This document shows, piece after piece, positions 9,229 through 42,379 of a stretch of DNA of 64,000 nt. Source of the stretch: an uncultured Candidatus Rokubacteria bacterium. Lineage in GTDB: Bacteria; Methylomirabilota; Methylomirabilia; Rokubacteriales; DASRDR01. The stretch lies in contig CAWDVE010000010.1 of assembly GCA_963805625.1 (NCBI GenBank), positions 2,048,001 through 2,112,000 on the forward strand, read 5' to 3'. Position numbers and translations under genes: made by a program. Numbering within the stretch: position 1 is the first letter of the stretch; the number at the start of each line of letters is the position of its first letter. Below the pieces are notes generated by a model, which worked only from the letters and a program-made list of their open reading frames with translations, ran no database searches and was not told where the DNA came from.

Positions 9229-9235
9229 GGCCGGC

Positions 9236-10181: not shown

Positions 10182-10311
10182 GCGACCGCCTCAGCGCGGC
10201 CGGCCCGCGCGGTCGATGGCCACGGCCCGAGGATGGCGGAGACGTCGGGGCGTGAGCGTCCCGGCGGCCGGCGTGCCGCTGATCACACGGACGGACGACG
10301 CCGCGGGTCCC

Positions 10312-22299: not shown

Positions 22300-22704
22300 G
22301 ACCGTCGATGGGGCCAGGCGATCGGGCGATCAGCAAGAAGCGCAGGGGCGCATGCTGCGAAAGGCGAAGGCGTAAGTGCGCTTCCGAGAGCGCGGTTGGG
22401 CCAGGGTCTGGAGCTGGACGCTGCGCAGGAGGTTGTGGGTCACCCTGAAGCTCCCTAGCGATGCGAGAATTGGGAACCACGAGGGCGTCAGGCGCAAGCT
22501 TACGCGCTCGGTGACGACCTCGGCCAGCGTTTGCCCCTGACGGCGTGTTGCGGCGGTCAATGACCACGTTTCCGCCCTCTTCCCAACCCACCCGGCGCCG
22601 CGGGGTATTGAAGGAGACATCGAATCTCGGGAGTCTGCTACGATACGAACCGGCCTGACGAGCAGCGCATGAGCACCACGCCCTCCGGGAGGTCAGATGC
22701 CTCG

Positions 22705-22825
22705 ATGGCTCGCCTCGAAGACCTGACCCGAGGCGCGACGGTGAAGGGCATCCTGCCCGACCACTCCATGACCGTCGTGGACGCCCAATGGCACGGCTCG
22801 AGATGCGTCGAGCTAACGTACGAAG
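22705..22825 (+). pseudogene. N-terminal remnant of an SNF2-type helicase gene
   Basis: 'MARLEDLTRGATVKGILPDHSMTVVDAQWHGSRCVELTY' recalled as the start of SNF2/DUF3883 helicases; similarity stops after about 40 codons. Confidence 0.6.
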
Positions 22826-22973
22826 GGGAGGCCGGTCCTGGCCGGTCGCTCCCACGGGGTGGCGGGACTCGCTTCTGTGCGCCCATCCCGCGTCTGCGCC
22901 ACGATAGGCGCGTGACCGCGAGAGCCACGGTTCGGATCGGCGGCCCCCCGGGGGGTGCTTCGCGGAGGGTGTC

Positions 22974-25409
22974 ATGAATCGAGAGTGGTCGGCGCGGCAG
23001 TCGATCGACGACGATCCCGACGTGCGCATCGAGCGGGACGGCGCCGCCGTCCGTCAGGTCCTCCATCTGACGCGCCCGTTCATGCACGAGGGCGCCACCT
23101 CGCCCGAGGACCTCGCCGCCCAATACCTCCGCGTCCGTGCCAACCTGTTCGACATCGACCCATCCACCCTTCCCGGCTCCCCGTCGCCGGCCCAGGACGG
23201 GGCCCGCCTGGACCCGAACCCCATGTCGGTCGAGAGCCGGGAGGGCGAGAGCGTGGCGGTCATCTTCCAGCAAATCCAGAAGATCGAGTCCCCGGCTCCG
23301 GAAAACGCCCGGTTTGACCTCCCCATCTGGGGGGCGGGCATCCGGGTCATGGTCGCTCGCGCTCCGCTCCGCGTGACGAGCGCCTACACCACGCTCCAGC
23401 CTGACCTGCCGAAGACGGTCGCCGTAGAGAGCGGGCCCTACCCCTATCCGAAGACGGCAGAGGAAGCGGCTCCGGGAAGGGCCGATCCGGCCACCGTCGA
23501 GGGTTACTTCGCGTACCCGGGTCCGGACCCTCGCCTGCGCGCGCGGGCCTCTACCCCGGTGCTCGTCTTCGGTCGGGAGGAGCATCTGGAGAACGGCCGG
23601 ATCCTTCCCTACCGCTACTATCACGACCTCGAGACGGTCATCCGCAAGGAGGTGCTCGTCTCCTCGGCCGCCGGCCTCGTCTTTCCCGTGGATCCCAGAA
23701 GCCAGAGCGCTCAGCCCGAGCCTGGCCCGTACCGCCCCGGGACGGAGCTCGACGCCTACGCCGCGCACCGGTCGCTACCGGACCTCACCGCCCCGGCGCC
23801 CGGGGGCAATTGGACGCTCGAGGGGACGCGGGTCTATGTCGCGCAGCCCAACCCGCTCGGCATCGCTCCGCCGTCCGAGCCGGGCCAGCTCTTCGACTAC
23901 ACGGCCCGCACGAATCACTTCGCGGGCGTGAACGCCTATCGTCACTGCGACGCGGCGTTCCGGATGGTGGCGGCCCTCGGATTCCCCCTAGCTGTGTACT
24001 TCAAGCCGAACCACGATGCCGGCAAGTTCCCGATCCGGGTCGTGCACCGGGCGCCGATCCCCCCAGGGCGGGGGCTCTTCGACGGCCGGACGGTCAACGC
24101 CCAGGTCACCGGCGACGAGCTCCCCGGCGTCGTGGGCGAGATGCGCTTTGCCCTCGCCGATCTCACTGACGCGGTCGATAACCCGATCGGAATCGCTGCC
24201 GACGCGCGGTTCGCGTGGCACGAGTTCGGGCACGTTCTGCTCATCGCGGCGACTGGGGAGATCGAGTTCCGGTTCGCCCACGGTGCCGGCGACGCCCTCG
24301 CCGCCGTGATCTGCGATCTCGACTCGCAGGTCGCGGTGAGTCCCCAGCTCGCGCCATGGCGCGGCGTGACGTTCCCCTGGGTGGAGGCGCTCCGGCGCCA
24401 TGACCGTCGGGCCGAGGACGGCTGGGCCTGGCACGGCTCGCTCTATGACCGCGCCACGTACGGCGAGATCCGCGATCCCGCCGGCTACCGGGCGGAGCAG
24501 CTCCTCTCGTCGACGCTGTTCCGGCTCTACCTGGCCCTGGGCGGAGCCGCCCAGCTTCCGGGAGGCCAGCCGGCCGCCCTGGCGCGCCGGACGGCCGCGG
24601 CCTACACGGCGTACCTGATCGTGCGGGCGATCCGCGCCCTGGGTCCGGCTTCGACGGCGCCGGCCCTCGACGCGTACGGCCTGGCCGGCGCGCTCCTGGA
24701 CGCCGACGTCGGGACCGGCTCACTGCTCCCGGACGAGGCGCTGTTCGCGCCGTTCCCGGCCCGCCGCCGACGGGGCGGGGCGGCGCACAAGGTCGTGCGT
24801 TGGGCATTCGAGCGCCAGGGCCTCTACGCGCCGGCGGCGGGTCGCCGCCCCTGGAACGCTCCCGGCGATCCCGAGGCGGTCGACGTCTACATCGACGACG
24901 GGCGCAACGGGCAATACGGCTACACGGCAGCCTGGGAGGCTCAGGCCCCCCATCTGCGGGTGTCGGCCACTCCGAATCCCAATGACCCGGACGTCCCCCC
25001 GCACGCCAATGTGTCGAGTCACGTCTTCGTCCGGGTCCAGAATCGCGGACTCCAGCCGAACCCCCAGCCCGCCACGGTCCGGGTGTTCGTGGCGCGCGTT
25101 CCTCCAGCCGGGCGGCCGCGCTGGCGCCTCGGGCCGGGCACGGGCAATCCTTGGGCCGAGTTGCAAGGTGAAGTCGGTGCGACGACCAGCGCCGTCGTGC
25201 CGCCGGGGCAATCGGTCGAGTTCGGACCGTTCCGCTGGCGGCCGCCAGTGGCCGGGCTACACAGCCTCCTGGCCTGCGTCGACGCGCCAGGGGATCGCTG
25301 CAACGCCCTCAGCCCCACCCTCGCGTGCGCGATCGGCCCGACGCGGCTGGATCACCTGGTGCCGCTCGACAACAACATCGCCTACCGGGAGGTGGCGGTC
25401 CTCGCCTGA
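22974..25409 (+). CDS. Zinc metallopeptidase (M4/M36-like) with prodomain and C-terminal beta-sandwich domain; no signal peptide
   Basis: 'VNAYRHCD', 'VNA', 'WHEFGH', 'FAHGAGD'; C-terminal 'VFVRVQNRG...DNNIAYR'. Confidence 0.8.
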   Translation: MNREWSARQSIDDDPDVRIERDGAAVRQVLHLTRPFMHEGATSPEDLAAQYLRVRANLFDIDPSTLPGSPSPAQDGARLDPNPMSVESREGESVAVIFQQIQKIESPAPENARFDLPIWGAGIRVMVARAPLRVTSAYTTLQPDLPKTVAVESGPYPYPKTAEEAAPGRADPATVEGYFAYPGPDPRLRARASTPVLVFGREEHLENGRILPYRYYHDLETVIRKEVLVSSAAGLVFPVDPRSQSAQPEPGPYRPGTELDAYAAHRSLPDLTAPAPGGNWTLEGTRVYVAQPNPLGIAPPSEPGQLFDYTARTNHFAGVNAYRHCDAAFRMVAALGFPLAVYFKPNHDAGKFPIRVVHRAPIPPGRGLFDGRTVNAQVTGDELPGVVGEMRFALADLTDAVDNPIGIAADARFAWHEFGHVLLIAATGEIEFRFAHGAGDALAAVICDLDSQVAVSPQLAPWRGVTFPWVEALRRHDRRAEDGWAWHGSLYDRATYGEIRDPAGYRAEQLLSSTLFRLYLALGGAAQLPGGQPAALARRTAAAYTAYLIVRAIRALGPASTAPALDAYGLAGALLDADVGTGSLLPDEALFAPFPARRRRGGAAHKVVRWAFERQGLYAPAAGRRPWNAPGDPEAVDVYIDDGRNGQYGYTAAWEAQAPHLRVSATPNPNDPDVPPHANVSSHVFVRVQNRGLQPNPQPATVRVFVARVPPAGRPRWRLGPGTGNPWAELQGEVGATTSAVVPPGQSVEFGPFRWRPPVAGLHSLLACVDAPGDRCNALSPTLACAIGPTRLDHLVPLDNNIAYREVAVLA

Positions 25410-25449
25410 CGGGCCATCCGTCGAGCTCGGGTCGGCGGCTGCGCCCGTC

Positions 25450-26355
25450 TCACGCCCACTCGCCGGCCGCGCTCGTGAGCAGCTGCGCGAAATAGGGACA
25501 CTGCGCGGCATTCTTGAGCAAGGCGAAGCTCTGGTCGGCCAGATATTGGCCCGCCTGGGAATCGGATGCGTAGTGAAAGCCCCCCCGCTCGCGGTTGACG
25601 GCGACGCGCTCCGCCAGCCAATCGAGCGCGGGTCCATGCGAGAGCTTGATCGCCGCCGGCAGCGCCTCCTTGAGGCAGAGAGTCATCAGCCGGCTCTGGG
25701 TGGCGTGGCCGCTCGGAAAGGCCGGGTGCGCGGGCGGGCCGAAGGGCGGGCACAGGCCCGGGGACAGCACGGAGGGCCGCGGCCGCTTGTACGTGTACTT
25801 GAAGTGCATCGCGATGATCTCGCCGACGCGCACCGCCACGTTCAGCAGCACCAGGTTCCAGAACTTCGTCGTCCTGTCGAGGTTGAGCAGCGACGCCCAG
25901 TACTGCGGCGCACCGTCGTGCTGGATCACGATCTCCGCCAGGTAGCGCTCGCGCTGGTCGCGCATGAGCGTCTGAAGTCCATTGATCTCGCCGTTGACGA
26001 AGGCCTGAGCTTGCGCCGGTGTCGTTCCGCCGAAGGCGGTCGACCACTGGAGGAGATTGACCGGGATTTGGATCTGCTGCCACGGCGTGCCAGCGAACTC
26101 GTTCACATACCGCAGGGCGAGCAACGCCGGATCCCACTTCTCGTCGGCATAGTCCTGCCACGGCGGGGCTTGGATCTCCACGGGAAAGCTCGGCGGTGCG
26201 TTGGGGGCGAGCGTGAACTGGAGTGTCAGCGGCGCCGCGCCCAGCTCGGGCGGCGTACCGCCGAAGCCCATCCCCATGCCCATGCCCATGCCCATTCCCA
26301 TCCCCATGCCCATGCCCATGCCCATCCCCATGCCCATGCCCATCCCCATCCCCAT
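25450..26355 (-). CDS. PAP2/vanadium-haloperoxidase superfamily enzyme with N-terminal (MG)15
   Basis: Motifs K-x6-RP ('KYTYKRPRP'), 'PSGH', 'RERGGFHYASD'; SD AAGGAGG upstream of the first ATG. Confidence 0.88.
   Translation of the reverse strand: MGMGMGMGMGMGMGMGMGMGMGMGMGMGMGFGGTPPELGAAPLTLQFTLAPNAPPSFPVEIQAPPWQDYADEKWDPALLALRYVNEFAGTPWQQIQIPVNLLQWSTAFGGTTPAQAQAFVNGEINGLQTLMRDQRERYLAEIVIQHDGAPQYWASLLNLDRTTKFWNLVLLNVAVRVGEIIAMHFKYTYKRPRPSVLSPGLCPPFGPPAHPAFPSGHATQSRLMTLCLKEALPAAIKLSHGPALDWLAERVAVNRERGGFHYASDSQAGQYLADQSFALLKNAAQCPYFAQLLTSAAGEWA
26266..26355 (-). repeat. 15 tandem hexamers ATG-GGN encoding (Met-Gly)15
   Basis: 90 nt; Gly codons 9 GGC, 5 GGG, 1 GGA. Confidence 0.97.
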
Positions 26356-26399
26356 GACGCCCTCCTTTTGGCGTGGCGCACCCGGGTCCCCGCCGGTGG

Positions 26400-26585
26400 C
26401 AGGCGACCACGAGCAGCTCGTGGCGGAGTTCTACTGATCGTGGGTTAGATGAAGCAGCTCGGCGCTCACCAACTGGGCAAATCCGCGTCGCGGCGCCGCC
26501 TCCTCCAAGGATCCGCAGCATCTCGCAGGCGACGTCCCGTCCCAGCACGGGACCGACCTGTGCGACCTCGCGCGCGGTCGGCGGG
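26400..26585 (-). pseudogene. Degenerate remnant of a cyclase-AAA-TPR gene (post-NTPase helical region)
   Basis: Broken frames give 'REVAQVGPVLGRDVACEMLR', 'LEEAAPRRGFAQLVSAELL', 'ELRHELL', comparable to 'LLQAAAVVGKDV...LRSGLRHLRAAELLY...FKHAL' in the adjacent gene. Confidence 0.6.
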
Positions 26586-26682
26586 CGAGCCTAGCGACCC
26601 CTGAGCGAGTCCCGAAGCGCCGCCGGGATCGCCACTGGCGTGAGCGGCCCGGTGAGGGTGTCGAGGTCACCGTCTGTCCGGA

Positions 26683-29600
26683 TCAGCCTGGACTGCAGGA
26701 TCCGCTCGGCCTCAGATCGGCCTCCGCCTGCGCCAGCCCGAGAGGCATGTCCAGTCCCCGGTACATCATGGCGGCGGCCGTGAGATGCTCTTCAGCCATG
26801 GGATGGTCTCCGAGGCGTCGGTAGAGGCGTCCAAGGCCGAGGTGGGAGTGAGCGACCAGCGGGCGCATGCCCAGCGTCTCGGCCAGAGCCAGCCCCTGGC
26901 GGAGGTGGCGCTCGGCGGCGTCGAAGTCGCCCGGGTCACGGTCAAGCGCCAACTTCCCCAAGAGGTGGAGCGCGCGCGCTTCGTGGCCACGCTCGCCCCG
27001 GTCGCGAGCCAGGGCAAGCGCCCGCTCCGCCGCTGACCGAGCCTCGTCGGGCCGCCCCGCGCGAACGAGGGAATCGCCCTGCCAGACAAGAGTTGGAGCC
27101 AGGACCGCCTGGCGTCGGGTCTGGGCCTGCATCACGGCCGTCTCGAGGAGGGGGAGTCCCTCGGCCGGAGCGCCCCAGGCAGCGCGCGCGTAGCCGAGGG
27201 CACCCATGACCTGAACCTGGTACAGGAGGTTGTCGGTGCGACGACACAGATGGAGCGCCTGGTTCAGGGCCTCGACGGCTGTCGCCAGCTCGCCGCGCTC
27301 GAGATGCACGCGGCCAATGCCGAGGTGGGCCACCACACAGTTGAACGGCTCGTCCTTCGCGAGCTGCAGCGCGCGCTCCCCGCGGGCCACGGCCTCCACG
27401 AACCGTCCCATCTCAGCCAAACAGACGGCGGCCCAGGCGCCCACGACAGGGAGCCGGTTCACGAAGACGCCCGATCGGGGTATCCCCTCGTGCGCGGCAT
27501 CCACCGCCGCCGCCTGATCGTAGAGAGCGAGGGCTTCAGGAAGGTCGCCGGACGACAGGGCGATCTGACCGAGGAAGAATCTCGCGACGAACTCGATCTC
27601 CCAGTCGCCTTCGCCCGTGACGAGCTCCAGCGCCCGCGCCCCGTATTGGCGGGCCCGCTCGTAGGCGGCCGTCTCATAGTAGACGGCCGTCATGAATGTG
27701 TAGACGCGGCCCAGGCGCCGGCGATCCGCCAGCGCCGTGGCGAGGCGCTCCGCCTCCCGCAGGTGCTCGATAACCCGCTCGTGCTCGAGCAGTTGAGCGA
27801 GTGGCGTGCGGACGGCGAGTCGCAGATCGGCCGCCTCCTCCAGCCGGGCCCGTGTCTCCGGGAGGTGACCAAGGGCGAGGAGCGCACGCTCGTAGAGGAC
27901 CGCGGCTTCGGCGGCGGCCGCGGAGCGTGCGTAGACCTTGGCCGCAGCCTGACGAGCATACCTCACGGCTTTCTCCCACATCTCGGCCGCGAGCGAATGA
28001 TGGGCTAGGCGCTCGAACTCACCGGAGAGCCGATCGGCGTGGAGACGCTCGATCGCCTCGACGACGCGGGCGTGAAGGGCCCGCCGCCGCTCGTGCAGGA
28101 GGCCCTGATAGGTCACGTCATGGGTCAGGGCATGCTTGAACGTGTAGCCGACCTCGGGCGCGGTGTGCCTCTCGTAGAGCAACTCGGCCGCCCGGAGGTG
28201 TCTCAGGCCCGACCGCAGCCTTTCGTCCGACACCTCGGCGATCGCACGGAGCAAGGTGAGCGGCACGTCCTTGCCGACGACGGCCGCTGCCTGGAGAAGG
28301 GACTTGTCCTCCGGGACGAGGCGGTCGATCCGAGCGGCGAGGACGGCTCGTACTGTGGGAGGCACTGACAGGGCGTCCAGCGCCTGCTCGAGCCGATAGA
28401 CGCCTCGCTGGCCGACCAGAGCACCCGACTCGACGACAGTCTGGATGCTTTCCTCGAGGAAGAACGGGTTGCCCTCGGTGCGCTCGATCAGAAGCGCCTT
28501 CAAGGGATCGAGGGTCAGGTGGGTTCCAAGGAGCGCGTCGAGCAGGGCCGACGCGCTCTCTGGGGGGAGGGAGTCGACTCGGAGCTGCGTGTAGTAGGTC
28601 TTCCCACCCCAGTCGTGTCGATATTCAGGACGGTAGCTGACCAAAAGCAGAAGCCGGGCGGTCGGGAGCTGTTCGACAAGGGCGTCGAGGACAACCTGCG
28701 TTTCGGAATCACTCCACTGGAGGTCCTCGACGACGACGAGGAGAGGCTGGACGCCGCTCTCGTGGAGGAGAAGGCGCGTGATGAACTCACGGGTGCGCTC
28801 ACGTCGCCGCGTCGGGGCGAGGGCATGCCACGCGTCGTCTTCCACCGGTAGGTCCAGCAGCGCGAGCGGTGCCACGAGATCAGGCTGGAGCATGCTGCCG
28901 GGCGTCAGGAGCCTACCCGTGACCTTCTCCCGGGCCAGTTGCGGATCATCCCGCTCCTGAATCCCGAAGTATCGTCGCAGGAGGTCCACCAGCGGCAGAT
29001 ACAGCGTCGCCGTCCCGTAGGATACCGCATGGCCCTCGAGGACGAGCCAGCCGTGAGTGCGGTGGGAATGGGTCAGCTCCCAAACAAGGCGGGACTTGCC
29101 CACACCAGGTTCGCCGACAAGGGCGACGACCTGCCCGCGGCCGGCGGCAGCGCGGCTGATGGCCTGGCGGAGCTGCTCGATCTCGGCGTCGCGACCGACG
29201 AAGCGGGTGAGACCGCGGGCGGCGGCGGCGTGGAGGCGGGAACGCAACGGGCCGGCGCCGAGCATCTCGTAGGCCTCCACGGGCGCCTCGAGGCCTTTGA
29301 CCAGGCGCAGACCGAGCGGCCGGACCTCTATGTAGCCCTCGGCGAGGCGGAGGGTATCCACGTTCAACAATGTAGTGCCCGGCTCTGCGAGCTGCTCCAT
29401 TCGAGCGGCGAGGTGAGTCGTCTGCCCCACGGCGGTGTAGTCCATCTGGAGATCGCTGCCGATGGCGCCGACGACGACCTCGCCGGAGTTGAGTCCGACC
29501 CGAATCGCCAGGCCCTCCAGCCGATGCGTGTGGCGCACCTCCTCGGCGTACCGCCGAATCGCGGCCTGCATGTCAAGCGCGGCGTAGCAGGCCCGCACCG

Positions 29601-30048
29601 CATGGTCCTCGTGGGCCAGGGGGGCGCCGAAGAGCGCCATGATCCCGTCGCCCATGACCTGATTGACTGTGCCCTCGTAGCGGTGGACGGCCTCCATCAT
29701 GCGCTCGAGCACGGGATCGAGGAGCTTCCGAGCCTCCTCGGGATCCCGGTCGGCCATGAGCTCCATGGAGCCCTTGAGGTCGGCGAAGAGGACGGTGATC
29801 TGCTTGCGCTCGCCCTCAAGGGCGGTCTTTGAGGTCAGAATCTTCTCGGCGAGGTGTTTGGGGGTGTAGGTAGCTGGAGAGATGAACGGAGTTTCGGCTG
29901 CGAGCGGCTGGCCACACTGAAAACAAAAGCGAACGCCGCCGGGCAGCTCTGCACCACACCGCACGCAGGCCTGGGCGAGCTGCGCGCCGCACCCGAGGCA
30001 AAACTTCGCCTGGGGCGGATTGTCCGTCTGGCACTGCGTACACCGCAT
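26683..30048 (-). CDS. Double zinc ribbon - class III nucleotide cyclase - AAA/STAND-like NTPase - TPR protein
   Basis: Four CxxC; 'VLFADLKGS', 'MGDGIMALFG', 'HLAARME'; Walker A 'GEPGVGKS', Walker B 'VVVEDLQW'; 'GNPFFLEE'; TPR tail. Confidence 0.95.
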   Translation of the reverse strand: MRCTQCQTDNPPQAKFCLGCGAQLAQACVRCGAELPGGVRFCFQCGQPLAAETPFISPATYTPKHLAEKILTSKTALEGERKQITVLFADLKGSMELMADRDPEEARKLLDPVLERMMEAVHRYEGTVNQVMGDGIMALFGAPLAHEDHAVRACYAALDMQAAIRRYAEEVRHTHRLEGLAIRVGLNSGEVVVGAIGSDLQMDYTAVGQTTHLAARMEQLAEPGTTLLNVDTLRLAEGYIEVRPLGLRLVKGLEAPVEAYEMLGAGPLRSRLHAAAARGLTRFVGRDAEIEQLRQAISRAAAGRGQVVALVGEPGVGKSRLVWELTHSHRTHGWLVLEGHAVSYGTATLYLPLVDLLRRYFGIQERDDPQLAREKVTGRLLTPGSMLQPDLVAPLALLDLPVEDDAWHALAPTRRRERTREFITRLLLHESGVQPLLVVVEDLQWSDSETQVVLDALVEQLPTARLLLLVSYRPEYRHDWGGKTYYTQLRVDSLPPESASALLDALLGTHLTLDPLKALLIERTEGNPFFLEESIQTVVESGALVGQRGVYRLEQALDALSVPPTVRAVLAARIDRLVPEDKSLLQAAAVVGKDVPLTLLRAIAEVSDERLRSGLRHLRAAELLYERHTAPEVGYTFKHALTHDVTYQGLLHERRRALHARVVEAIERLHADRLSGEFERLAHHSLAAEMWEKAVRYARQAAAKVYARSAAAAEAAVLYERALLALGHLPETRARLEEAADLRLAVRTPLAQLLEHERVIEHLREAERLATALADRRRLGRVYTFMTAVYYETAAYERARQYGARALELVTGEGDWEIEFVARFFLGQIALSSGDLPEALALYDQAAAVDAAHEGIPRSGVFVNRLPVVGAWAAVCLAEMGRFVEAVARGERALQLAKDEPFNCVVAHLGIGRVHLERGELATAVEALNQALHLCRRTDNLLYQVQVMGALGYARAAWGAPAEGLPLLETAVMQAQTRRQAVLAPTLVWQGDSLVRAGRPDEARSAAERALALARDRGERGHEARALHLLGKLALDRDPGDFDAAERHLRQGLALAETLGMRPLVAHSHLGLGRLYRRLGDHPMAEEHLTAAAMMYRGLDMPLGLAQAEADLRPSGSCSPG

Positions 30049-30653: not shown

Positions 30654-30884
30654 TAGACAGGCCTCGGAAACTGGCCCATGGGTTGCTTGCATTTCGAGCT
30701 GGGGCCTCTGCAAACCAAGGACGCGAGCTTCTGCAGGCCGCGAGCAGGCACGCGATCCAGCGATCTCCTGGGCGGGTTGAGGAGGCTCTTATTGAGCCTT
30801 GCGCAAGTAATGGAAAGAGCGGACTTGCCCCGGCGCTCGGTGATCTGGTCGAGGGCAACAGGCGATGACGGCTCGAGTGGGTCG

Positions 30885-31601
30885 CTATGCTGGGCGGGCG
30901 GCGACCGCGCCCCCGACGCGCTCGACGCCGGCGAATGCGCTCAGCGTGAGCCAGGTCGGGAAGGCGCGGACGAGCGACGGCGGCCCATCGAGCCGGATCA
31001 GGCCAGCACGGACGGTCTCGGCCAGCCGCACGTCACCCATCCAGACCCGTGTCAGAGTCCGGAGGTCGGCGCTGACCACGATGTCGACCGGAAAACCGGG
31101 GTCCTTGAGGCAGAGGTCGACCTCCCGCCGCTCGAGCACGAGCCACCACGTTCTCGGGCAACGCATGGTCGCCGGCACCCCGCGGAAGTCGAAGCGCACG
31201 ACGACCCGCTCCGAGGGCAGCGCTTCCAGGTTCACACGCCGGTGGATGTCCCACATGAGCAGGCCCGGGTCCAGGTCACCCCGGTCGACCTGTGCGCGGG
31301 CCCACCGCTGGCCCCACTCGCCGAGGCACTCGATAAGCGGCCGCAACTCCTCACCCGCCGCGGTGAGGTGGTATTCGCGCCCGCGGCCATGCGGCCTGGC
31401 CACGCTCCGCACGATGCCGGCGTCCTCGAGCTGTTCGAGACGTCCGGCGAGGAGCGTGCGCGACATCAGGGGCACACCCCGGTGGAGGTGGCTGAAGCGA
31501 CGGCTCCCGCAGAGCAGCTCGCGCAGGACGAGCGGGGTCCATCGCTCGGCGACGATCTCGGCCGCCTTGGCGACCGGGCAGAACTGGCCGTACCCCTTCA
31601 T
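30885..31601 (-). CDS. HxlR-family winged-helix regulator with SCP2-like C-terminal domain
   Basis: 'YGQFCPVAKAAEIVAERWTPLVLRELL', 'YHLTAAGEEL'. Confidence 0.92.
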   Translation of the reverse strand: MKGYGQFCPVAKAAEIVAERWTPLVLRELLCGSRRFSHLHRGVPLMSRTLLAGRLEQLEDAGIVRSVARPHGRGREYHLTAAGEELRPLIECLGEWGQRWARAQVDRGDLDPGLLMWDIHRRVNLEALPSERVVVRFDFRGVPATMRCPRTWWLVLERREVDLCLKDPGFPVDIVVSADLRTLTRVWMGDVRLAETVRAGLIRLDGPPSLVRAFPTWLTLSAFAGVERVGGAVAARPA

Positions 31602-31705
31602 CCTGTCTCGAGGGTAGTGAACGGCGGAGGGCGTCGCAAGTCCATTTTTTGTGCTTTACCGCCCGGCCGGCCGGAGCCATCCTGCCGGTCACCAGGAGGT
31701 GCCCT

Positions 31706-33130
31706 ATGGTTGCTCGATCAGCTCTCGAGACTGAGCGTCGCGACGGCACCGCTCTCGACGATGCGGCCCTCGCCGACCTGGCGCCACACTTCCGTGGAGA
31801 GCTCATCCGTCCCGGCGACCCGCCGTACGACGCCGCCCGCGCCATCTGGAACGGTGCGATCGATCGTCATCCCGGGCTCGTCGCGCGCTGCACCGGCGCC
31901 GCCGACGTCCGTGCCGCCGTCCGTTTCGCGCGCGAGCACGATCTTCTCGTCGCCGTGCGAGGCGGCGGCCACAACGTCGCCGGCACCGCGGTGTGTGACG
32001 GCGGGCTCGTGATCGATCTCTCACCGATGAAGGGCCTGTGGGTCGATCCGGCGGGGCGAACTGCGCGAGCGCAGCCGGGACTCCTCTGGGGCGAGTTCGA
32101 CCGCGAGACCCAGGCCTTCGGGCTCGCCGCGCCCGGCGGGATCATCACCCACACCGGCATCGCGGGTCTCACGCTCGGCGGGGGGCTCGGCTGGCTGATG
32201 CGCCGACACGGACTGGCCGCCGACAACGTCCTGTCGGCCGATGTGGTCACCGCCGACGGTGACTTCCTTCGCGCCAGCGCTGAGGAGCACGCCGACCTCT
32301 TCTGGGGGCTCCGCGGGGGCGGCGGCAACTTCGGGGTGGTCACGTCCTTCGAGTATCGTCTGCACCCCGTCGGACCGATCGTCCTGGCCGGCGTGATGCT
32401 CCACCCTGCCGCGAAGGCCCGCCAGGTCCTGGGCTTCTACCGCGACTTCATCGGGAGCGCGCCCGACGAGCTGACGACCATCGTGGTCCTCCGGATGGCG
32501 CCGCCCGCGCCCTTCCTTCCTCCGTGGGTGCACGGACAACCGGTCGTGGTCATCGGCGCGTGCTACGCGGGCTCGGTGGAGGAGGGCGAGCGAGCGGTTG
32601 CCCCGCTGCGGCGGTTCGGCGAGCCACTGGTGGACCTGATCCGGCCGACGCCGTACGTCTCACATCAGGCGCTCTTCGACCCCACCGCGCCCCACGGGCT
32701 CGGCTACTACTGGAAATCGGAGTACGTGCCATCGCTCAGCGATGCCCTCATCGACACGCTCGCCGAGCGGGCCTGGGGGGTCGCGACGCCGGAGTCCTAC
32801 ACGATCATCTTCCACCTGGGCGGTGCCGTCGGTCGACAGGATCCGGAGGGATCGGCCTTCGAGGACCGGCGGGCGGCCCATGCGGTGAACATCGACGCCG
32901 TCTGGTCCGAGCCCGCCCGCGCGTCCGCGTGCATCGCGTGGAGCCGGGAGCTGTGGGAGGCGGTGCGTCCGTATTCCACGGGCCGTGTCTACGTGAACTT
33001 TCTCGGGGAGGAGGGGCAGGACCGAGTGCGGGCGGCCTACGGCGAGGCCAAGTACGAGCGGCTCCGGGCGCTCAAGCGCAAGCACGACCCGACGAACTTC
33101 TTCCGGCTGAACCAGAACATCCGACCGTAG
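31706..33130 (+). CDS. FAD-linked oxidase (berberine-bridge/6-hydroxy-D-nicotine oxidase family)
   Basis: 'VRGGGHN' covalent-FAD His, 'LFWGLRGGGGNFGVVT', 'YVNF', 'DPTNFFRLNQNI'; divergent from HxlR. Confidence 0.95.
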   Translation: MVARSALETERRDGTALDDAALADLAPHFRGELIRPGDPPYDAARAIWNGAIDRHPGLVARCTGAADVRAAVRFAREHDLLVAVRGGGHNVAGTAVCDGGLVIDLSPMKGLWVDPAGRTARAQPGLLWGEFDRETQAFGLAAPGGIITHTGIAGLTLGGGLGWLMRRHGLAADNVLSADVVTADGDFLRASAEEHADLFWGLRGGGGNFGVVTSFEYRLHPVGPIVLAGVMLHPAAKARQVLGFYRDFIGSAPDELTTIVVLRMAPPAPFLPPWVHGQPVVVIGACYAGSVEEGERAVAPLRRFGEPLVDLIRPTPYVSHQALFDPTAPHGLGYYWKSEYVPSLSDALIDTLAERAWGVATPESYTIIFHLGGAVGRQDPEGSAFEDRRAAHAVNIDAVWSEPARASACIAWSRELWEAVRPYSTGRVYVNFLGEEGQDRVRAAYGEAKYERLRALKRKHDPTNFFRLNQNIRP

Positions 33131-33449
33131 ATCGGGCTGCACACCGGGGACACTTCATGCCGGGGCCTCCCCTGGGCGACGTGAGAACCGAACGGCCGGC
33201 TCCACAACCTGGCTGAGCGGTGGCCAGACTCTCGAACGAGCGGTTCGGGAAGGCGCATCACTTTCTCTTCTGTGGCGAGGGCAGGTACGAAGGCTGGACG
33301 CAGCGCCTGCTGACGGAGATCCCCACGGCCGCCCTGCCGCCCGACCTCCCGGGCCGCCGCGGGGAGCTCCGCGACGCTACGCCTATTTCTGTGCTTCGGG
33401 GAACTCGAAAACCGTGTGGATCGACGCGGAGCCGACCTGACATGCCACG

Positions 33450-33526: not shown

Positions 33527-35077
33527 TCAATTGCGGCCTCTCAGGACTAACTTGGCCGCCGCGCTACTCTGCGCAAACTCGCCGGTCTCGAAGTCGAAGG
33601 CAAACGCCGACACCGAGACGTTCACGGGGCCGCCGACGAAGAGAGCGACTGCCCGTCCGTGGAAGAGAGCTGGCGACGACTGGGTGGTCGCCGTCCACGA
33701 CGCCGTACCGGTGCTGTCGCAGAACACCGATGCATAGAAGAATCCGGTCAGGACCGCCTTACCGTGAGTCTCAGTAAGCTGACCCATAATGGATGCGAAT
33801 ACGGGGCGGTTACAGATCAGCGTGCCACTGACCGTGGCCGCGCCCGTCGTCAGACCGACCGAGCCGAACTCAGACACGGTCAGGAAGACCGCGAGAGGGG
33901 GCGGACCGAGGATGAGGTTGAGTACCAGGTTGCCCGCCGGAGACCCGTAGGGTGACGAGACCATCAGGTAGTAGGTAACCCCGGCGCCCGCGTTGAAACG
34001 AACCCGGGACTGCAAGCCCTGGCTGTTGTCGTTGCATGCAGCTTGGCTGAGCGCGCCCCGGAGACCTGTGTAGACCGACAGGGTGGTGTCGTATTCGCTC
34101 CCAAACGTATTGACCTCCACCCACATATCACTGGCGGGCGTGAAGGTGAACCAGACTGTCCCGGTCTGTCCGAAGCAAGACGGATCGTCGAGCGCCGCGG
34201 TAGCGCCACTGGTGTTCTGGGCGTACGTGAAGGGGATGCCGGACACGACGATCGCGCGGTCGATCTCGTCGTTTGGCGGTGGCGGCAAAGCGACCGTGAT
34301 TCGGGTGAAACGCGTCTCGACCGTACCCTGTCCGTTGTCTCCCGTGAAAGCCACGGCGTAGGCGCCGGCCTGTCCCGGGGATGGCGTCCAGCTGAACGTC
34401 CCAGTGTTGTCTTCATGATCGATGAAGCCGGCGCTGTCGGGTAGCCCGGCCGCGGCGAGCGTCACGTGGCGTCCGTCGATCTCGGTCGCGGTGACGTCAA
34501 AGCTCAGGAGCTGACCCTCGAATGTGGTCGCCGTGGCCGGCGCCACCAGTTCGATGGCAACCGTCGCATTGAACCGAATCTCCCCGCGCAAAGCTACCGC
34601 TGCGCCCTCGCAGTGCTGTTCGAACGTGGCGCGGAAGGCGACGATTTCGTCTCCTGAGCCGTAGGTGACCTCTTTGACCTCAAAGCCCCCCGTCAGTGTG
34701 TTGCAGCCGCGCCCGTCGCCATAGATGTCCAGACCGGGTTGGCCCGGCTCGCGGAACGCAAAGCGCGCTGCGCCGGAGTAGAGGCCCGTGGCGAGGAACT
34801 GGCCGTCGGGTGCGCCGAAGTCCAGATACCACCAATGGCTGTAGTTCGGCGTGTTGAACGCGATCGACACCCCATTGGCGTAGTTTCGCCGTGCAGTGAA
34901 TGAGCCATCTTCCTGGGCGAAGAATGTTGACTGCCCCCCGCCGATGTAATCGCCCGGATCGCTGTCGAGCCAGAGCGACGTCACGGCGGCCGCGGCGTCG
35001 GGAACTTCGAAGCCTCCGAGGAGCACAGCGACCACGATGAGCGTGAAACCGAGCAGGGTTCCCCTTCTCGCCATCAT
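33527..35077 (-). CDS. Secreted multi-domain beta-rich protein (uncharacterised N-domain, Ig-like, PPC-like)
   Basis: Signal peptide; 'SDPGDYIGGG', 'GRGCN...FEQHCEG'; 'GTFSWTP'; 'PPNDE...VWFTFTP...YDTTLSVYTG...CNDN'. Confidence 0.85.
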   Translation of the reverse strand: MMARRGTLLGFTLIVVAVLLGGFEVPDAAAAVTSLWLDSDPGDYIGGGQSTFFAQEDGSFTARRNYANGVSIAFNTPNYSHWWYLDFGAPDGQFLATGLYSGAARFAFREPGQPGLDIYGDGRGCNTLTGGFEVKEVTYGSGDEIVAFRATFEQHCEGAAVALRGEIRFNATVAIELVAPATATTFEGQLLSFDVTATEIDGRHVTLAAAGLPDSAGFIDHEDNTGTFSWTPSPGQAGAYAVAFTGDNGQGTVETRFTRITVALPPPPNDEIDRAIVVSGIPFTYAQNTSGATAALDDPSCFGQTGTVWFTFTPASDMWVEVNTFGSEYDTTLSVYTGLRGALSQAACNDNSQGLQSRVRFNAGAGVTYYLMVSSPYGSPAGNLVLNLILGPPPLAVFLTVSEFGSVGLTTGAATVSGTLICNRPVFASIMGQLTETHGKAVLTGFFYASVFCDSTGTASWTATTQSSPALFHGRAVALFVGGPVNVSVSAFAFDFETGEFAQSSAAAKLVLRGRN

Positions 35078-36245: not shown

Positions 36246-36577
36246 CGCAAGCCTCCTGCGGACCAAGCGGTCCGTGGGGCCCGGGCGATCGCCAACGTCG
36301 GTGCCAGGGCCGCGGTCGCCGTGCCGGACGGTCGGTCTGGTTCGGGATCGCCCGAAGACGACTGGGTGGCCCCTGTGGGCTCTGGCTCTGAACGCGACAG
36401 CAGGCTCCCGTCCTCTCGGCGGTCCTCGATGACCTCCAAGCCGGGGAGACCCCGGAGCACGTGCTCGATGGCCGCTCGAAGGCCACCCTGGCCGCGAGCC
36501 ACGATGAACAGGAGCCTCGACTTCGTCGCGCCTGGCTCTTCCCCGCCGCTACCCCGCTCTGGCTCTCGCTCGCTCAT
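36239..36577 (-). CDS. Small hypothetical protein ('LFIVAR...EVIEDRR' type)
   Basis: SD GGAGAGGAG before ATG 36577; first gene after the sigma54 promoter. Confidence 0.6.
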   Translation of the reverse strand: MSEREPERGSGGEEPGATKSRLLFIVARGQGGLRAAIEHVLRGLPGLEVIEDRREDGSLLSRSEPEPTGATQSSSGDPEPDRPSGTATAALAPTLAIARAPRTAWSAGGLRC

Positions 36578-36630
36578 CGGCCTCTCCTCTCCCAGCGCCC
36601 AATTGATCGTCTGCGCACGCCTGACGAGAG

Positions 36631-36647
36631 AGCATCCGGGGTGCCAG
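36631..36647 (-). promoter_or_regulatory. Sigma54 (-24/-12) promoter
   Basis: CTGGCAC-CCCGG-ATGCT, GG-N10-GC spacing; faces away from the adjacent sigma54 activator. Confidence 0.75.
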
Positions 36648-36718
36648 CCGAGGACGGCAACCTTGACGCGCACTTACGAAGGCCCCCGATGGTGAATGGG
36701 TGGGGGACGCTGGTCGGG

Positions 36719-36737
36719 AACTGCGCAGTTTGCGCAA
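36719..36737. promoter_or_regulatory. Candidate enhancer (UAS) dyads
   Basis: AACTGCGCAGTT perfect palindrome overlapping a second TTGCGCAA dyad, about 75-90 bp upstream of the -24 element. Confidence 0.45.
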
Positions 36738-36769
36738 GACCGGCCCAGAGCGCAGTAGAATGCCGCGCA

Positions 36770-39700
36770 ATGGACGCGCTGACCGAGCTGGTCGGCGACA
36801 GCCCCGCTCTGGTGGGCGTCCGAACGCAGGTGACGCGGCTACTTCAGCGCCACCGAACGACGGCGCGGCTGCCCCCCATCCTGATCCAGGGGGAGACCGG
36901 GACCGGCAAGGGGCTCCTGGCGCGGCTCCTGCACCGGGAAAGTCCCCGTGGAAGCGCTCCCTTCGTCGACGTCAACTGCGCCGCCATCCCGGAGGCGCTC
37001 CTCGAAGCCGAGATGTTCGGCTACGAGCGCGGGGCGTTCACCGACGCGCGTCAGGCGAAGCCCGGGCTCTTCCGCGCCGCGCACGGCGGCACGATCTTCC
37101 TGGACGAGGTCGCCCTGCTTCCCCACGGGCTCCAGGCCAAGCTTCTCAAGGCGATCGAGGAGCAGGCGGTCCGACGGCTGGGCAGCACTCGGACCGAACC
37201 GGTCGACGCGTGGGTCTTGGCGGCCACCAACACGGATCTCGCGGCGGCGGTTCGCCAGGGAGGGTTCCGGGGCGACCTCTACCATCGGCTGGCCGTGGTG
37301 ACGTTTACGCTGCCGCCGCTCCGGGAACGGGCCGGGGACGTCCTGGTGCTGGCGGAGCAATTCCTCGCGCGGGCCTGCGCCGACTACCGACTGCCGCCGA
37401 AGACCCTGGCGGCCGACGCCCGCGCAGCGCTTCTCGCGTATCCCTGGCCCGGCAACGTCCGCGAGCTCGCCAATGTGCTCGAGCGCGTCGCGCTCCTGTC
37501 CGACACGACGACGATCACCGGGGACATGCTGGGGCTCAAGGCCGACTCGCCGACAGAAGGATCGGTCACAGGAGCGTCCCCAGGCGGGCACCGGACCCTC
37601 GACGCCATGGTCCGCGACCATCTCGAGCGAGTCCTCGAGGAACACGGCTGGAACATCTCCCGGGCGGCACTGGCGCTCGGCGTGGCGCGCAACACCCTCC
37701 GCGCTCGCATCGCGAAGCACGGGCTCGTGCTGTCATCGTCCCCGCGCCACGGGCCGACTCGCGCCCGAGGCACCGCCGCTCCCTCCGGCGGGCCGGCTGC
37801 CTCGGCGATGTCCGGGACGGCCGGGTCGGCCCCCACCGCGCCCGCGAACTGGGAGTCCCGCCGGCTCGCGTTCCTGCGAGCGGCCATGCCGATGGCCTCC
37901 GACGAAACCGGCGCGTCGCTGACGTACGGCGCCATCGACGCGGTCGCCGGGAAAGTCGGGGCCTTCGCGGGCCAGGTCATCGAACGGAGCCCAGAGGGGC
38001 TCGTGGCGGTGTTCGGCCTCGACCTGATGGAGGACCCGGTCGGCCGGGCGGCATCCGCCGCGCTCGCGATCGGCCGGCTCGCCGAGCGGGCAGGCGCCGG
38101 CATCCGGCTCGGCCTCCACGTCGGGCGCTGCCTCGTGGCGGCGGTTCGAGGGCGCCATGAGATCGACCTCGACGGCAAGCAGAGCGCGTGGGCCAGCCTG
38201 GACGGGGTGCTCGCTGGCGTCGGCCCGGGAGAAGTCCGGGCCAGCGCCGACACGCTGCCGTTCCTCAGGGGCCGGTTCGATCTCGAGGCGGGCGGGACCG
38301 CCGACGCGGCCCCGGCGCCCGTGTGGGTGCGGGGCCGCGCCTCGCCGGACCTCCGGTCCCGGACGCCATTCGTCGGCCGGGAGGCGGAGCTGGCGTTCCT
38401 GAAGGACCGCCTCGCCGCCGCGCGGACCGGCCACGGTCAGATGGTGGGACTCGTCGGGGAGCCTGGCGCGGGGAAGTCACGCCTCGTCGCCGAGTTTCGG
38501 GCGGTCGTCCGGCGCGAGGGACTCGTCTACGTCGAGGGCGCGTGCGTGCCGCATGGCTCAGCGATCCCCTACCTGCCGATGATCGATCTTCTTCGCGGGG
38601 CCTGCGGGATCGGGGCCGGCGACGCGCCCGACGTGATGACGGAGAAGGTCCGCACCACGCTCCGGCTGCTCCGGCTGGACGCGGACGAGACCGCCGCGTA
38701 TCTGTTGCCGCTCCTCGGCCTGGGCGAGGACCCGGCGCCGGCGCTCGCGCCGGACACCGTGTCTCCGCAGGCGCGGCGGGGACGTACGATCGCGATCCTC
38801 CGAGAGATTGCCCTCGCCGCCAGCCGGCGGGGGTCAGTGGTGCTGGTGGTGGAAGATATCCAGTGGATCGATCAGACGTCGGAGGCGTGCCTGGCCGCCC
38901 TGACCGACAGCCTCGCGGGGGCCCCGATCCTGGCGCTCACCACGTACCGAGCCTCGTACCGGCCCACGTGGCTCGAGCGGTCCTACGCGACCCAGGTGGC
39001 GCTTTCCGCGCTCTCTACGGCCCAGAGCTCGGGCCTCGTGCGGAGCCTCCTGCCAGCCTCGGCCCCGGACGACGTCGTGCGCGCGCTCGTCGACCGCGGC
39101 GACGGAAATCCCTTCTTCCTCGAGGAACTCGCCCGGGCGCAGCGGGACGACCCATCCGGTCAGCCGACGTCCGTCCTCCCCGAGACGGTCCAGGAGGTGC
39201 TCCAACTCCGGATCGACCGGCTGCCCGCCGGGGCCCGGCGGGCGCTACTAGTCGCGGCCGTCATCGGTCGCCGGGTGCCGCGCTGGCTCCTCGAGGCGAT
39301 CTGGCCAGGTCCTGACAACCTCGACTCGAGCCTGCGCACCCTCGTCGCGCTCGAGTTCCTCTACGAGCGCGGTGGCGGTGAGCCGGCGTACGCGTTCCGG
39401 CACGCGCTCACCCACGAGGTCGCCTACGCCAATCCGTCCGCCAGCGAGCGTCAGGCCCTGCATGGAGTGGCCGCCGAGGCGCTCGAGGAACGGCATCGAG
39501 CTCGACTGGACCCCGTGCTCGAGCACCTGGCGCGCCACTACGCGCTCTCGCCGCGGCCAGACAAGGCGGTCCACTATCTCGCGCGGTTCGCCGAGAAGGC
39601 GGCGCGGACGCACGCGCATACCGAGGCGATCGGTGCCCTGGATCAGGCCCTCGCCCGCGTCGAGGAACTGCCGGAGCCGGAGCGGGCGCCGCGGCGCGCC

Positions 39701-40891
39701 GATCTGCTGCTGCGCCGGGTGGCGTCGCTGCTCCCCCTCGGCCGGTTCCAGGAGGCCCATGATCGGCTGGTGGCGCCGGCGCTCCAGTCCGTCGCGCCGA
39801 CCGAGGCGGCGCTGGCGGGTCCCTATCACTACCTGCGGGCACGAGTCGCGAGCTTCCTCGGGGCGCACGACGAGGCAACGGAGAGCGCCGAGCGCGCGAT
39901 CGAGGCCGGCCGCCGCGCGGGAGACGTCCGCATGATGGGCAAGGCGCATGCGTTCCTCGCGCTGGACGCGGCGCTGGTCGGCCTGGGCCAGGCCGGCCTG
40001 GCGCACGGGCGCCAGGCGCTGGTGCTACTGGAGGGCACGGCGGAACAGGGGTGGCTCGGCGTGGCGCACTGGGCGATGGGGCTCGGGCAGGCGGCGACCG
40101 GCGAGTTTGCGCGGGCGCTCGACGCCGAGGCCCGAGCCCGGACGATCGCGACGGCCATCGGCGACCGTGCCCTCTTGGCCTCCGTTGCCTGGGCCACCGG
40201 CGCGATCCACGCTGCGGCCGGCGACGGGGCCGCGGCCATCCGTGCCTGCACGGAGAGCCTCGCGCAGGCGCCGGATCCCCTCCAGGCCGCCCTCGCCCGC
40301 GGCTGGCTGGGGTATGCCTACGTGGAACTCGGCGATCCCGCCGCGGCGATCCCGCTTCTGGAGCAGTCGACCCGGGAACTCGCGACGTTCCGGTTCGCAC
40401 GCCACGGCTGGTTCCGCGTGTTCCTGGCGGAGGCTTACCGGCAGAGCGGCCGGCTCTACGAGGCGTCGATGTCCGCGAAGGACGGACTGGCTGCCATGAC
40501 CGCGCCTCGGCTCGCGTACGGCACCGGCTGGGGACACAGGGTGCTCGGCCGCGTGGCGCAGGCCGAGCGCGCCTACGAGGCAGCTGAGGCGCATTTCCTG
40601 GCAGCGCATCGCACCTTTGATGCCATCGCGGCGCGGTACGAGCTGGCCCGAACCGAGCTGGACCTGGCCGCGCTCGCCGAGGCGCGCGGGGACCCTGGCC
40701 ACGCTGCGGCCTGTCGCGCCGCCGCGCAATCGCGACTCAACGACCTCGGGATCCGCCGGGATCCCGAGCTGGCCGACGCTCCGCTCGGGCAGCGCCCCCA
40801 GGATCTGACTGCGACTCGGCGTGAAGCGAGCCAAGCCGGTGACGCGGGCGCGAAACCGTTGCCGGGACCGCCGCAAGGCGAGACGCCGTGA
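36770..40891 (+). CDS. Sigma54 enhancer-binding AAA+ - Fis HTH - degenerate cyclase - second NTPase - TPR fusion (1373 aa)
   Basis: 'GETGTGKG', 'GAFTDA', 'FLDEV', 'WPGNVREL', 'WNISRAALALGVARNTL'; second Walker A 'GEPGAGKS', 'GNPFFLEE', 'FRHAL'. Confidence 0.93.
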   Translation: MDALTELVGDSPALVGVRTQVTRLLQRHRTTARLPPILIQGETGTGKGLLARLLHRESPRGSAPFVDVNCAAIPEALLEAEMFGYERGAFTDARQAKPGLFRAAHGGTIFLDEVALLPHGLQAKLLKAIEEQAVRRLGSTRTEPVDAWVLAATNTDLAAAVRQGGFRGDLYHRLAVVTFTLPPLRERAGDVLVLAEQFLARACADYRLPPKTLAADARAALLAYPWPGNVRELANVLERVALLSDTTTITGDMLGLKADSPTEGSVTGASPGGHRTLDAMVRDHLERVLEEHGWNISRAALALGVARNTLRARIAKHGLVLSSSPRHGPTRARGTAAPSGGPAASAMSGTAGSAPTAPANWESRRLAFLRAAMPMASDETGASLTYGAIDAVAGKVGAFAGQVIERSPEGLVAVFGLDLMEDPVGRAASAALAIGRLAERAGAGIRLGLHVGRCLVAAVRGRHEIDLDGKQSAWASLDGVLAGVGPGEVRASADTLPFLRGRFDLEAGGTADAAPAPVWVRGRASPDLRSRTPFVGREAELAFLKDRLAAARTGHGQMVGLVGEPGAGKSRLVAEFRAVVRREGLVYVEGACVPHGSAIPYLPMIDLLRGACGIGAGDAPDVMTEKVRTTLRLLRLDADETAAYLLPLLGLGEDPAPALAPDTVSPQARRGRTIAILREIALAASRRGSVVLVVEDIQWIDQTSEACLAALTDSLAGAPILALTTYRASYRPTWLERSYATQVALSALSTAQSSGLVRSLLPASAPDDVVRALVDRGDGNPFFLEELARAQRDDPSGQPTSVLPETVQEVLQLRIDRLPAGARRALLVAAVIGRRVPRWLLEAIWPGPDNLDSSLRTLVALEFLYERGGGEPAYAFRHALTHEVAYANPSASERQALHGVAAEALEERHRARLDPVLEHLARHYALSPRPDKAVHYLARFAEKAARTHAHTEAIGALDQALARVEELPEPERAPRRADLLLRRVASLLPLGRFQEAHDRLVAPALQSVAPTEAALAGPYHYLRARVASFLGAHDEATESAERAIEAGRRAGDVRMMGKAHAFLALDAALVGLGQAGLAHGRQALVLLEGTAEQGWLGVAHWAMGLGQAATGEFARALDAEARARTIATAIGDRALLASVAWATGAIHAAAGDGAAAIRACTESLAQAPDPLQAALARGWLGYAYVELGDPAAAIPLLEQSTRELATFRFARHGWFRVFLAEAYRQSGRLYEASMSAKDGLAAMTAPRLAYGTGWGHRVLGRVAQAERAYEAAEAHFLAAHRTFDAIAARYELARTELDLAALAEARGDPGHAAACRAAAQSRLNDLGIRRDPELADAPLGQRPQDLTATRREASQAGDAGAKPLPGPPQGETP

Positions 40892-42309: not shown

Positions 42310-42379
42310 CCAGGACCCGGCTCCGGAGGCCGGAGCTGCACGAACTTGGCAGCACCATGCGCTCCCGCGGGAGGTCACC

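Follow-up and report, generated by a model that had tools for sequence, protein, structure and literature searches.

We analysed a 64,000-nucleotide stretch of DNA from an uncultured Candidatus Rokubacteria bacterium (the window; part of a 2.2-Mb contig in a genome of 7.27 Mb) and focused on a cassette of three intact open reading frames (ORFs) within it. These encode a metalloprotease, an enzyme of the PAP2 superfamily that begins with a Met-Gly repeat, and a sensor of the STAND type (signal transduction ATPase with numerous domains) that ends in tetratricopeptide repeats (TPRs). Their coordinates are given in Table 1; L-numbers denote relative loci, P-numbers relative proteins, C-numbers contigs of the same genome and X-numbers public sequencing runs. 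An earlier note on this DNA had described the three ORFs, with the protease and PAP2 genes converging across a 40-nt gap, and the coordinates agree with that description. The gap folds as a hairpin that lacks a U-tract (folded without a control), and a promoter and terminator scan found no sigma-70 site and four weak hairpins at chance level, none of them in the 40-nt gap.

Table 1. Features of the cassette and its left border (window coordinates).
Feature	Position	Strand	Basis
DDE_Tnp_1_4 transposase fragment, left-border debris	22323-22442	-	76% DNA identity to four genome copies; 71% over 34 aa
Helicase-related gene, N-terminal 43 aa, left-border debris	22714-22842	+	66% to plasmid helicase-related proteins, E 6e-10
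Cytoplasmic M36/M4-fold metalloprotease, 811 aa	22974-25409	+	Fold search, model, conserved motifs
Soluble PAP2-superfamily enzyme, 301 aa	25450-26355	-	Pfam PAP2; fold
(Met-Gly)15 N-terminal repeat of the enzyme	26266-26355	-	Low model confidence, likely disordered
AAGGAGG ribosome-binding site ahead of the first Met of the repeat	26361-26367	-	
Frameshifted scar, last ~15 codons of the putative ancestral cyclase-TolB-like-TPR sensor gene	26389-26435	-	47 nt; ..EKLRRELLAAGLPQ and stop in L083/L085/L127
Decayed NTPase-TPR gene fragment (post-NTPase helical region)	26486-26701	-	42% over 72 aa to C7 paralogue, in-frame stop, E 2e-8
STAND sensor, 1121 aa: double zinc ribbon, class III cyclase, AAA_16 NTPase, TPR array	26683-30048	-	Pfam, motif positions
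Cassette-specific TPR region, residues 691-1121, presumed ligand-binding part	26686-27978	-	

Near-identical pieces of all three genes were found in contigs of public runs from four studies, one run possibly being the source sample. Single records of X2 bridge the protease/PAP2 junction (24575-25746) and the PAP2 start with its spacer (26273-26634), and single records of X1, X3 and X4 bridge the spacer and the end of the STAND gene; none covers the whole three-gene stretch. Matches in the RNA runs X19 and X20 were short or diverged, and X19 contains 25-kb records, so expression is not claimed.

To the left, the cassette is bordered by debris that had been ascribed to IS256 and a helicase. The helicase remnant was recovered, while the IS256 label was ruled out by the match to four genome copies of a transposase, the intact one being DDE_Tnp_1_4 by Pfam, which we take to be IS1380-type. 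The decayed fragment of a second NTPase-TPR gene, also described earlier, proved genuine and carries an in-frame stop.

The protease and the repeat-bearing enzyme

The protease gave no Pfam or NCBIfam match and its profile had no match among PDB sequences, and it was placed by fold search alone. Foldseek assigned the model (predicted local distance difference test score 85.8) to the thermolysin/M36 group. Structural comparison gave Z 27.1 and a root-mean-square deviation of 3.2 over 315 aligned residues against the M36 structure 7z6t, and Z 21.7 against thermolysin. A prodomain-like N-terminal part (about residues 1-230), predicted to be beta-rich, is followed by the catalytic domain (232-637) and a C-terminal CARDB-like immunoglobulin (Ig) domain; for one relative the UniRef name is 'FTP domain-containing', with no Pfam match. 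The motif residues lie in HEFGH (416-420) and at His436, Asp440 and Arg474, and H416, E417, H420, H436, D440 and R474 are kept in 81/81 relatives. His436 replaces Glu as the third zinc ligand, a position taken from the sequence alignment (AHGAGD against SEGFCD of a Glu-type homologue) and not from model coordinates. The N-terminal hydrophobicity is 0.3, and 5 of 103 full-length homologues exceed the heuristic secretion cut of 1.8. Compared with fungalysin (M36) and thermolysin (M4), the protease shares the fold, the HEXXH motif and perhaps the prodomain-like N-terminus, but it has HXXXD in place of EXXXD, the invariant Tyr505 and the CARDB-like domain, shows no secretion signal and lies below Pfam detection. 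It is single-copy in its genome. L083, L084 and L122 encode a further M36 protease, of the Glu type, that ends in the same domain, and three marine or sediment loci (L140, L142 and L143) carry a His-type M36-like protease with no PAP2 gene; in L143 an M28 peptidase gene follows it, and L140 has a similar gene start.

The PAP2 enzyme, likewise single-copy, has the superfamily motifs intact on a helical bundle (K186-x6-RP, PSGH217 and R255-x5-H261-x3-D). Its model has the class A acid phosphatase fold (template modelling (TM) score 0.5, E 6e-7 to 7f17), and an ESM Atlas search returned PAP2/VCPO_2nd clusters only. An extra histidine, His210, lies seven residues before the PSGH histidine and aligns with His411 of the Ascophyllum vanadium bromoperoxidase (1qi9), a residue that we assume has a role in that enzyme; it is not present in the acid phosphatases of the same alignment. 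K186, R193, H210, H217, R255 and H261 are kept in 119/119 enzyme relatives. The accessible part of the text of PMC10427571 has nothing on His411. The whole model reaches a TM score of 0.22 to vanadium bromoperoxidases and has 301 aa, without the chain of about 550-600 aa and the additional helical scaffold of those enzymes. No signal peptide was apparent: the N-terminus is the Met-Gly repeat, with a hydrophobicity of 1.2 against 2.3 for a signal-peptide control (heuristic). The enzyme shares the fold and three catalytic motifs with class A non-specific acid phosphatases and vanadium bromoperoxidases, and the extra histidine with the latter, but it is half as long as the algal enzymes, lacks a signal peptide, carries an N-terminal repeat and has fixed gene partners. 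The core may carry out phosphatase or vanadium peroxidase chemistry, and it may act on, or be gated by, the enzyme's own tail.

The glycine codons of the (MG)15 tail are mixed (GGG, GGC and GGA), and no other (MX)6 or longer run appears when the genome is translated in all six frames. Relatives carry other units, among them MG, MS, GY, GT, GA, GE, GH, GV, NQ, DQ, DGN, MGD, DGGG and 8-mers, in about 4 to 41 copies. A deeper search found at least 31 units, carried by 39 of 90 full-length representatives; many gene starts are called too late, which makes these figures minima. Within perfect peptide runs, which had been picked for their perfection, 1667/2813 neighbouring codon pairs differed synonymously, and such change was found in 118/119 loci. 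Long perfect runs with scrambled third positions point to selection on the peptide. Longer tails with constant and variable positions, resembling multi-core peptide precursors, were seen in P0434, P0453, P0426, L030, L041 and L056.

The repeats might be polymerisation motifs (amyloid or zipper) that cluster the enzyme, with the protease dissolving the clusters and the TPR protein nucleating or monitoring them. The range of copy numbers fits this, as do the GA, GT, NQ, MG and GY runs, presumably beta-prone, but charged units (GE, DQ, DM and DGN) and tails of 2-3 copies exist, and the sensor N-terminus lacks a matching motif, unlike the pairs of nucleotide-binding leucine-rich repeat receptors (NLRs) with amyloids. 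We give this explanation hardly any probability.

Recurrence of the cassette in other genomes

From 452 genome loci found with the enzyme and 442 metagenome loci found with the protease we surveyed the best 80 each, many of them near-duplicates. A protease gene stands beside the repeat-tailed PAP2 gene in 72/80 genome loci. By protease, the 80 enzyme loci divide into M36-like (41, or 42 with a contig-end fragment), G1 glutamic peptidase (18), S8 subtilase (10), papain-like (2) and none (8). The partner is thus drawn from four unrelated classes, with an S9 fusion in L126 besides, suggesting that proteolysis is kept and not one fold. Conversely, the enzyme was present in 68/80 protease loci; of the remaining 12, nine break off no more than 280 bases from the protease and three are truly without the enzyme. 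Enzyme and M36-like protease converge in 101/110 loci. The third partner is usually a gene of about 590 aa with Pfam cyclase and TPR domains and a middle part that we presume to be TolB-like; it was found in 76/80 genome loci, and three of the four misses lie at contig starts. A STAND NTPase occurs in 0/80 genome and 3/80 metagenome loci.

The earlier note had proposed a mobile three-part module and a synteny search for it. The search supported the pairing of protease and PAP2 gene and the wide recurrence of both with a cyclase-TPR gene; it did not support STAND as the regular sensor, which was found directly next to the enzyme only in the window and in L082. The left flank up to 22113 is common to 6/20 same-family genomes (78-92% identity), in all 20 of which the protease, the enzyme and the TPR part had no match, so the cassette is patchy and probably mobile. 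Consistent with this, the protease profile matched in 0/20 genomes of the family and at full strength in eight other genomes among 251 in the phylum. The enzyme family comprises 679 clusters at 50% identity (E up to 1e-30) and is present in cultured Bradyrhizobium, Bosea, Ramlibacter and Roseateles, which makes it directly testable. Paired cassettes with different proteases were seen in L083, L084, L085 (M36-like and G1) and L122. In L126 a (TA)15-PAP2 protein is fused to an S9 prolyl oligopeptidase (6798-9680, minus strand) and adjoined by a second PAP2 copy (9723-10451, minus strand), both upstream of a complete GT-type cassette.

The gene neighbourhoods bear on two further explanations. The first, which builds on the conflict cassette suggested in the earlier note, is a conflict system in which the STAND/TPR protein senses an invader and activates the protease, which unmasks a toxic PAP2 effector. 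The patchy, mobile distribution and the STAND architecture suit such a system; the window cyclase resembles Pycsar PycC models, and a protease-activated pro-nuclease offers a precedent, as far as the accessible part of that preprint describes it (10.1101/2025.07.28.667249), in which a protease likewise adjoins its putative substrate. However, neither protease nor enzyme has a PADLOC match, and PADLOC matched few neighbours (6/141, from 43 loci, at 1e-10). Three of these six are CRP regulators, a family found near 14/148 loci, with a Crp helix-turn-helix domain in 13/13 of the neighbours examined, and the named neighbours are mostly metabolic (67 proteins scanned). The sensor N-terminus is itself a signalling output (cyclase or sigma-54 activator), and the partial covariation of sensor and repeat unit described below would be left unexplained. 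The window protein does share an NTPase-TPR sensor and an exchangeable N-terminal output with STAND receptors of the MalT and Avs types, but its presumed ligand is self-encoded, it has no defence context, and STAND is a rare substitute and not the core of the cassette. To the Avs and Pycsar models it shows only cyclase-domain (PycC) and generic TPR similarity, and no effector gated by cyclic nucleotides adjoins it. The idea that the STAND protein activates its neighbouring protease in defence is not supported by these counts, and we consider a conflict system improbable.

The second is a precursor similar to the ribosomally synthesized and post-translationally modified peptides (RiPPs): the enzyme would modify its own multi-core tail by oxidation, halogenation or cyclisation, the protease would free the products and the TPR protein would be a regulator that senses them. 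Fused-precursor RiPPs (borosins and BURP-domain cyclases) and Kex2-processed repeat precursors combine a catalytic domain or a dedicated protease with repeated cores. The cassette resembles them in having enzyme and repeat in one chain, a dedicated protease and the oligopeptidase fusion of L126; the bromoperoxidase-type histidine in 119/119 relatives and the multi-core-looking tails with one variable aromatic position (PNYAA[Y/F/H]AA in L056; P0434 and P0453) point the same way. It differs from borosin and BURP precursors in its PAP2/haloperoxidase fold, in units of 2-3 residues that have no chemistry in common, and in its obligatory TPR signalling partner. The GA, GT, GE, NQ and DGGG units have no common modifiable side chain, yet the active site is invariant, and the neighbour families include no conserved exporter, transporter or tailoring gene. 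We regard this explanation as unlikely; it would be compatible with peptide signalling if the modification were what is sensed.

The STAND sensor and a scar of the usual sensor

The window sensor has the layout of a STAND protein, with an N-terminal output domain, a P-loop NTPase with Walker A (GEPGVGKS, 312-319) and Walker B motifs, a helical domain and C-terminal repeats; the cyclase residues D90, D134 and R216 are present. The genome holds 35 NTPase-like ORFs, of which 25 are long, the window STAND included, and the cyclase and NTPase of the window protein are 59-77% identical to their closest paralogues. In contrast, its TPR region is 37-43% identical to the closest full-length paralogues of its own genome and 76.5% identical to that of the STAND protein of L082, whose NTPase is 35% identical and whose output half is a sigma-54 activator. 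A search of 5.8 billion proteins showed this TPR clade to be small (87, 80, 76 and 72% identity, then 50%), and within it the TPR is kept at 72-87% while the output half differs. With seven candidates scored per genome, the allele was found in one of 251 phylum genomes, the window's own. The TPR thus goes with the cassette and not with the 24 other long paralogues, in line with the three-part module suggested earlier. P0243, a clade member of the sigma-54 type that comes from the same source as a close protease homologue (P0129) and from a contig of equal length, suggests a third linked copy, its linkage being indirect.

We then looked at the position that the STAND gene occupies. The window enzyme is sister to that of L082 within the MG clade, and L083 and L085, clade members with a visible upstream gene, have the usual sensor. 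In both the window and L082, a frameshifted scar matching the end of that usual sensor gene sits just ahead of the enzyme's ribosome-binding site. The window scar scored 36-40 in alignments with three relatives, values reached by 1, 7 and 0 of 2000 shuffles, and the L082 scar is stronger (61-92 against shuffle maxima of 40-44). A scar of the usual sensor ahead of the PAP2 start indicates that the sensor was probably swapped in place by the STAND gene. In the simplest history the STAND gene would have replaced the ancestral sensor where it stood, its TPR being retained and its output halves exchanged later. Such a swap between unrelated receptor scaffolds would independently support a need for a TPR sensor in the cassette. 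The decayed NTPase-TPR gene fragment (26486-26701) was considered as the old sensor and rejected: neither the sensor-family profile nor tblastn matches it, and it is NTPase-gene debris.

Alternatively, the STAND gene might be a chance neighbour that destroyed the real sensor, leaving the PAP2-protease pair orphaned or served by a cyclase-TolB-like-TPR gene on C10. The many NTPase-like ORFs of the genome and the lack of STAND neighbours in the 80 genome loci speak for this, as does a full-length sensor of the usual type about 340 kb away (C10:1730103-1732277), with no PAP2 or protease gene near it. Against it, L082 carries the same TPR allele at the corresponding position, joined to another N-terminal half, the allele was not found in 250 other genomes of the phylum that also lack this protease clade, and all three genes are intact. 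The earlier note had itself objected that adjacency could be chance in a genome rich in cyclase-TPR genes, and the shared TPR and scar, at two directly seen loci, answer that objection. We judge a chance neighbour very improbable. Around the C10 sensor (L161, G000:C10:1726900-1732300) lie genes of the ABC substrate-binding type and short cyclase-NTPase-TPR fragments; elsewhere on that contig, the sensor profile matches a cluster of very long ORFs rich in TPRs (the longest 1719 aa; G000:C10:63446-79676, minus strand).

A candidate peptide signal and its output

We propose that the cassette is a protease-gated intracellular peptide signal with the TPR protein as its reader and a cyclic-nucleotide/CRP or sigma-54 output, a model to which we give about an even chance. 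The ligand would come from the (MG)15 tail of the PAP2 enzyme. After an upstream trigger the cytoplasmic metalloprotease would cut the tail, and the STAND TPR array would bind the repeat and switch the cyclic-nucleotide output. The released short pieces, with 15 copies per enzyme serving as an amplifier, may activate the sensor; alternatively, the intact multivalent tail may activate it, with the protease as an off-switch. Activation by released pieces seems slightly more likely than activation by the intact tail. In most relatives the reader would be the cyclase-TolB-like-TPR protein, sometimes with an adjoining CRP regulator, and in the small clade the STAND TPR would have taken over, joined to a cyclase (window) or to a sigma-54 activator (L082 and P0243).

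To examine the link between reader and tail, we collapsed 92 loci to 40 groups containing nine same-unit pairs. TPR similarity in these pairs was higher than expected from the identity of their cyclases and enzymes (residual +0.06, permutation p 0.0002), and the protease catalytic domain showed no excess likeness (-0.005, p 0.68). Furthermore, the sensor TPR that accompanies an S8-clade enzyme with (NQ)12 is 66% identical to that of a (DQ)5 sensor of the M36 clade, with 33% between the enzymes. Among pairs whose TPR end does not abut the repeat, NQ and MS were positive, and GV, half of it remote, was negative. These data make covariation of TPR and repeat suggestive.

Several observations weigh against peptide signalling through a matched TPR. 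Most of the covariation comes from the MS and GE pairs (p 0.15 when both are left out), three of the nine pairs (GV, GY and DGN) run in the opposite direction, and by parsimony the TPR tree needs hardly fewer unit changes (32) than the PAP2 tree (34). The sensor TPR end abuts the repeat in 77/92 loci, and such physical linkage can mimic coupling. Protease subsite residues follow the clade, with no clear rule relating them to the unit. Unit length does agree with protease class (M36 with 93 2-mers and five 8-mers, G1 with 17 3-mers, S8 mixed), but each class is roughly one branch of the PAP2 tree, so the agreement is not independent and counts about once. Some homologues (L050, L053, L058 and L062) have no repeat. 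The STAND gene was directly seen beside the enzyme in two loci only, and the CRP-family genes, counted within three genes and spread across protease classes, have no matched control. In the window cyclase, Q130 and H212 depart from what we take to be the canonical K and N. The four repeat-less loci are from Bosea and carry cyclase-TPR and PAP2 genes with neither repeat nor protease, a possible natural control.

Among known systems, the RRNPP family (Rap-Phr, NprR, PlcR-PapR, Rgg-SHP and AimR-AimP) couples a TPR receptor to a short peptide encoded by a neighbouring gene and matured by a protease, in many specificities. The cassette would be similar in all four respects, but its putative peptide forms a tandem repeat on a 270-aa enzyme, with neither a signal peptide nor conserved export or import genes, and not a small exported propeptide re-imported by Opp. 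Its output is a cyclase or a sigma-54 activator, and its protease belongs to the cassette and is interchangeable. The closest working parallel would be an RRNPP circuit that stays inside the cell and has its repeat precursor fused to an enzyme. The cassette lacks defining features of RRNPP systems, class A phosphatases, algal bromoperoxidases, canonical M36/M4 proteases and Avs/Pycsar systems alike.

The literature search found no description of the cassette in titles or abstract beginnings, most subscription papers and preprint supplements lying outside its scope. The main text of 10.64898/2026.01.04.697583 has no occurrence of cyclase, PAP2 or Rokubacteria, while its supplementary tables may list the STAND clade. 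New are the putative replacement of the usual sensor by a STAND protein, together with the scar, as well as the His-type M36 protease and, in the enzyme, the histidine of the bromoperoxidase type. More broadly, and tentatively, since we hold it somewhat more likely to be wrong than right, the cassettes might form an undescribed, widespread class of one-locus circuits. In these, an enzyme-borne peptide code of dozens of di- to decapeptide words would be released by a swappable protease, possibly after a haloperoxidase-like core has marked it, and read by a code-matched TPR receptor with a cyclic-nucleotide or sigma-54 output. The window would then hold a STAND/NLR-like receptor newly evolved to read Met-Gly, having replaced the ancestral one in place. 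If true, common orphan cyclase-TPR proteins, and one STAND-TPR paralogue of this lineage, would gain a function through a candidate ligand, and the loci would form a natural library in which TPR-repeat pairs differ in specificity. They would also provide a thermolysin-fold protease of the His3 type and a bromoperoxidase-type site in a soluble enzyme of minimal size.

Outside the cassette, an HxlR regulator and a FAD-linked oxidase (30830-33140) have counterparts of 94-98% identity on other contigs in four same-genus genomes; this exceeds the identity of the left flank and suggests separate recent movement. The minus strand at 33527-35077 encodes a protein of 516 aa whose start is signal-like and which has Ig/PPC-type domains. 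Further right, a run of large genes on the plus strand (36461-50232) encodes a sigma-54 activator-NTPase (1476 aa), a HEAT-repeat protein (473 aa) and a TPR protein (1121 aa), and includes a 1506-aa ORF that had no Pfam match; the DNA there has 75% GC and a strong T-over-A skew.

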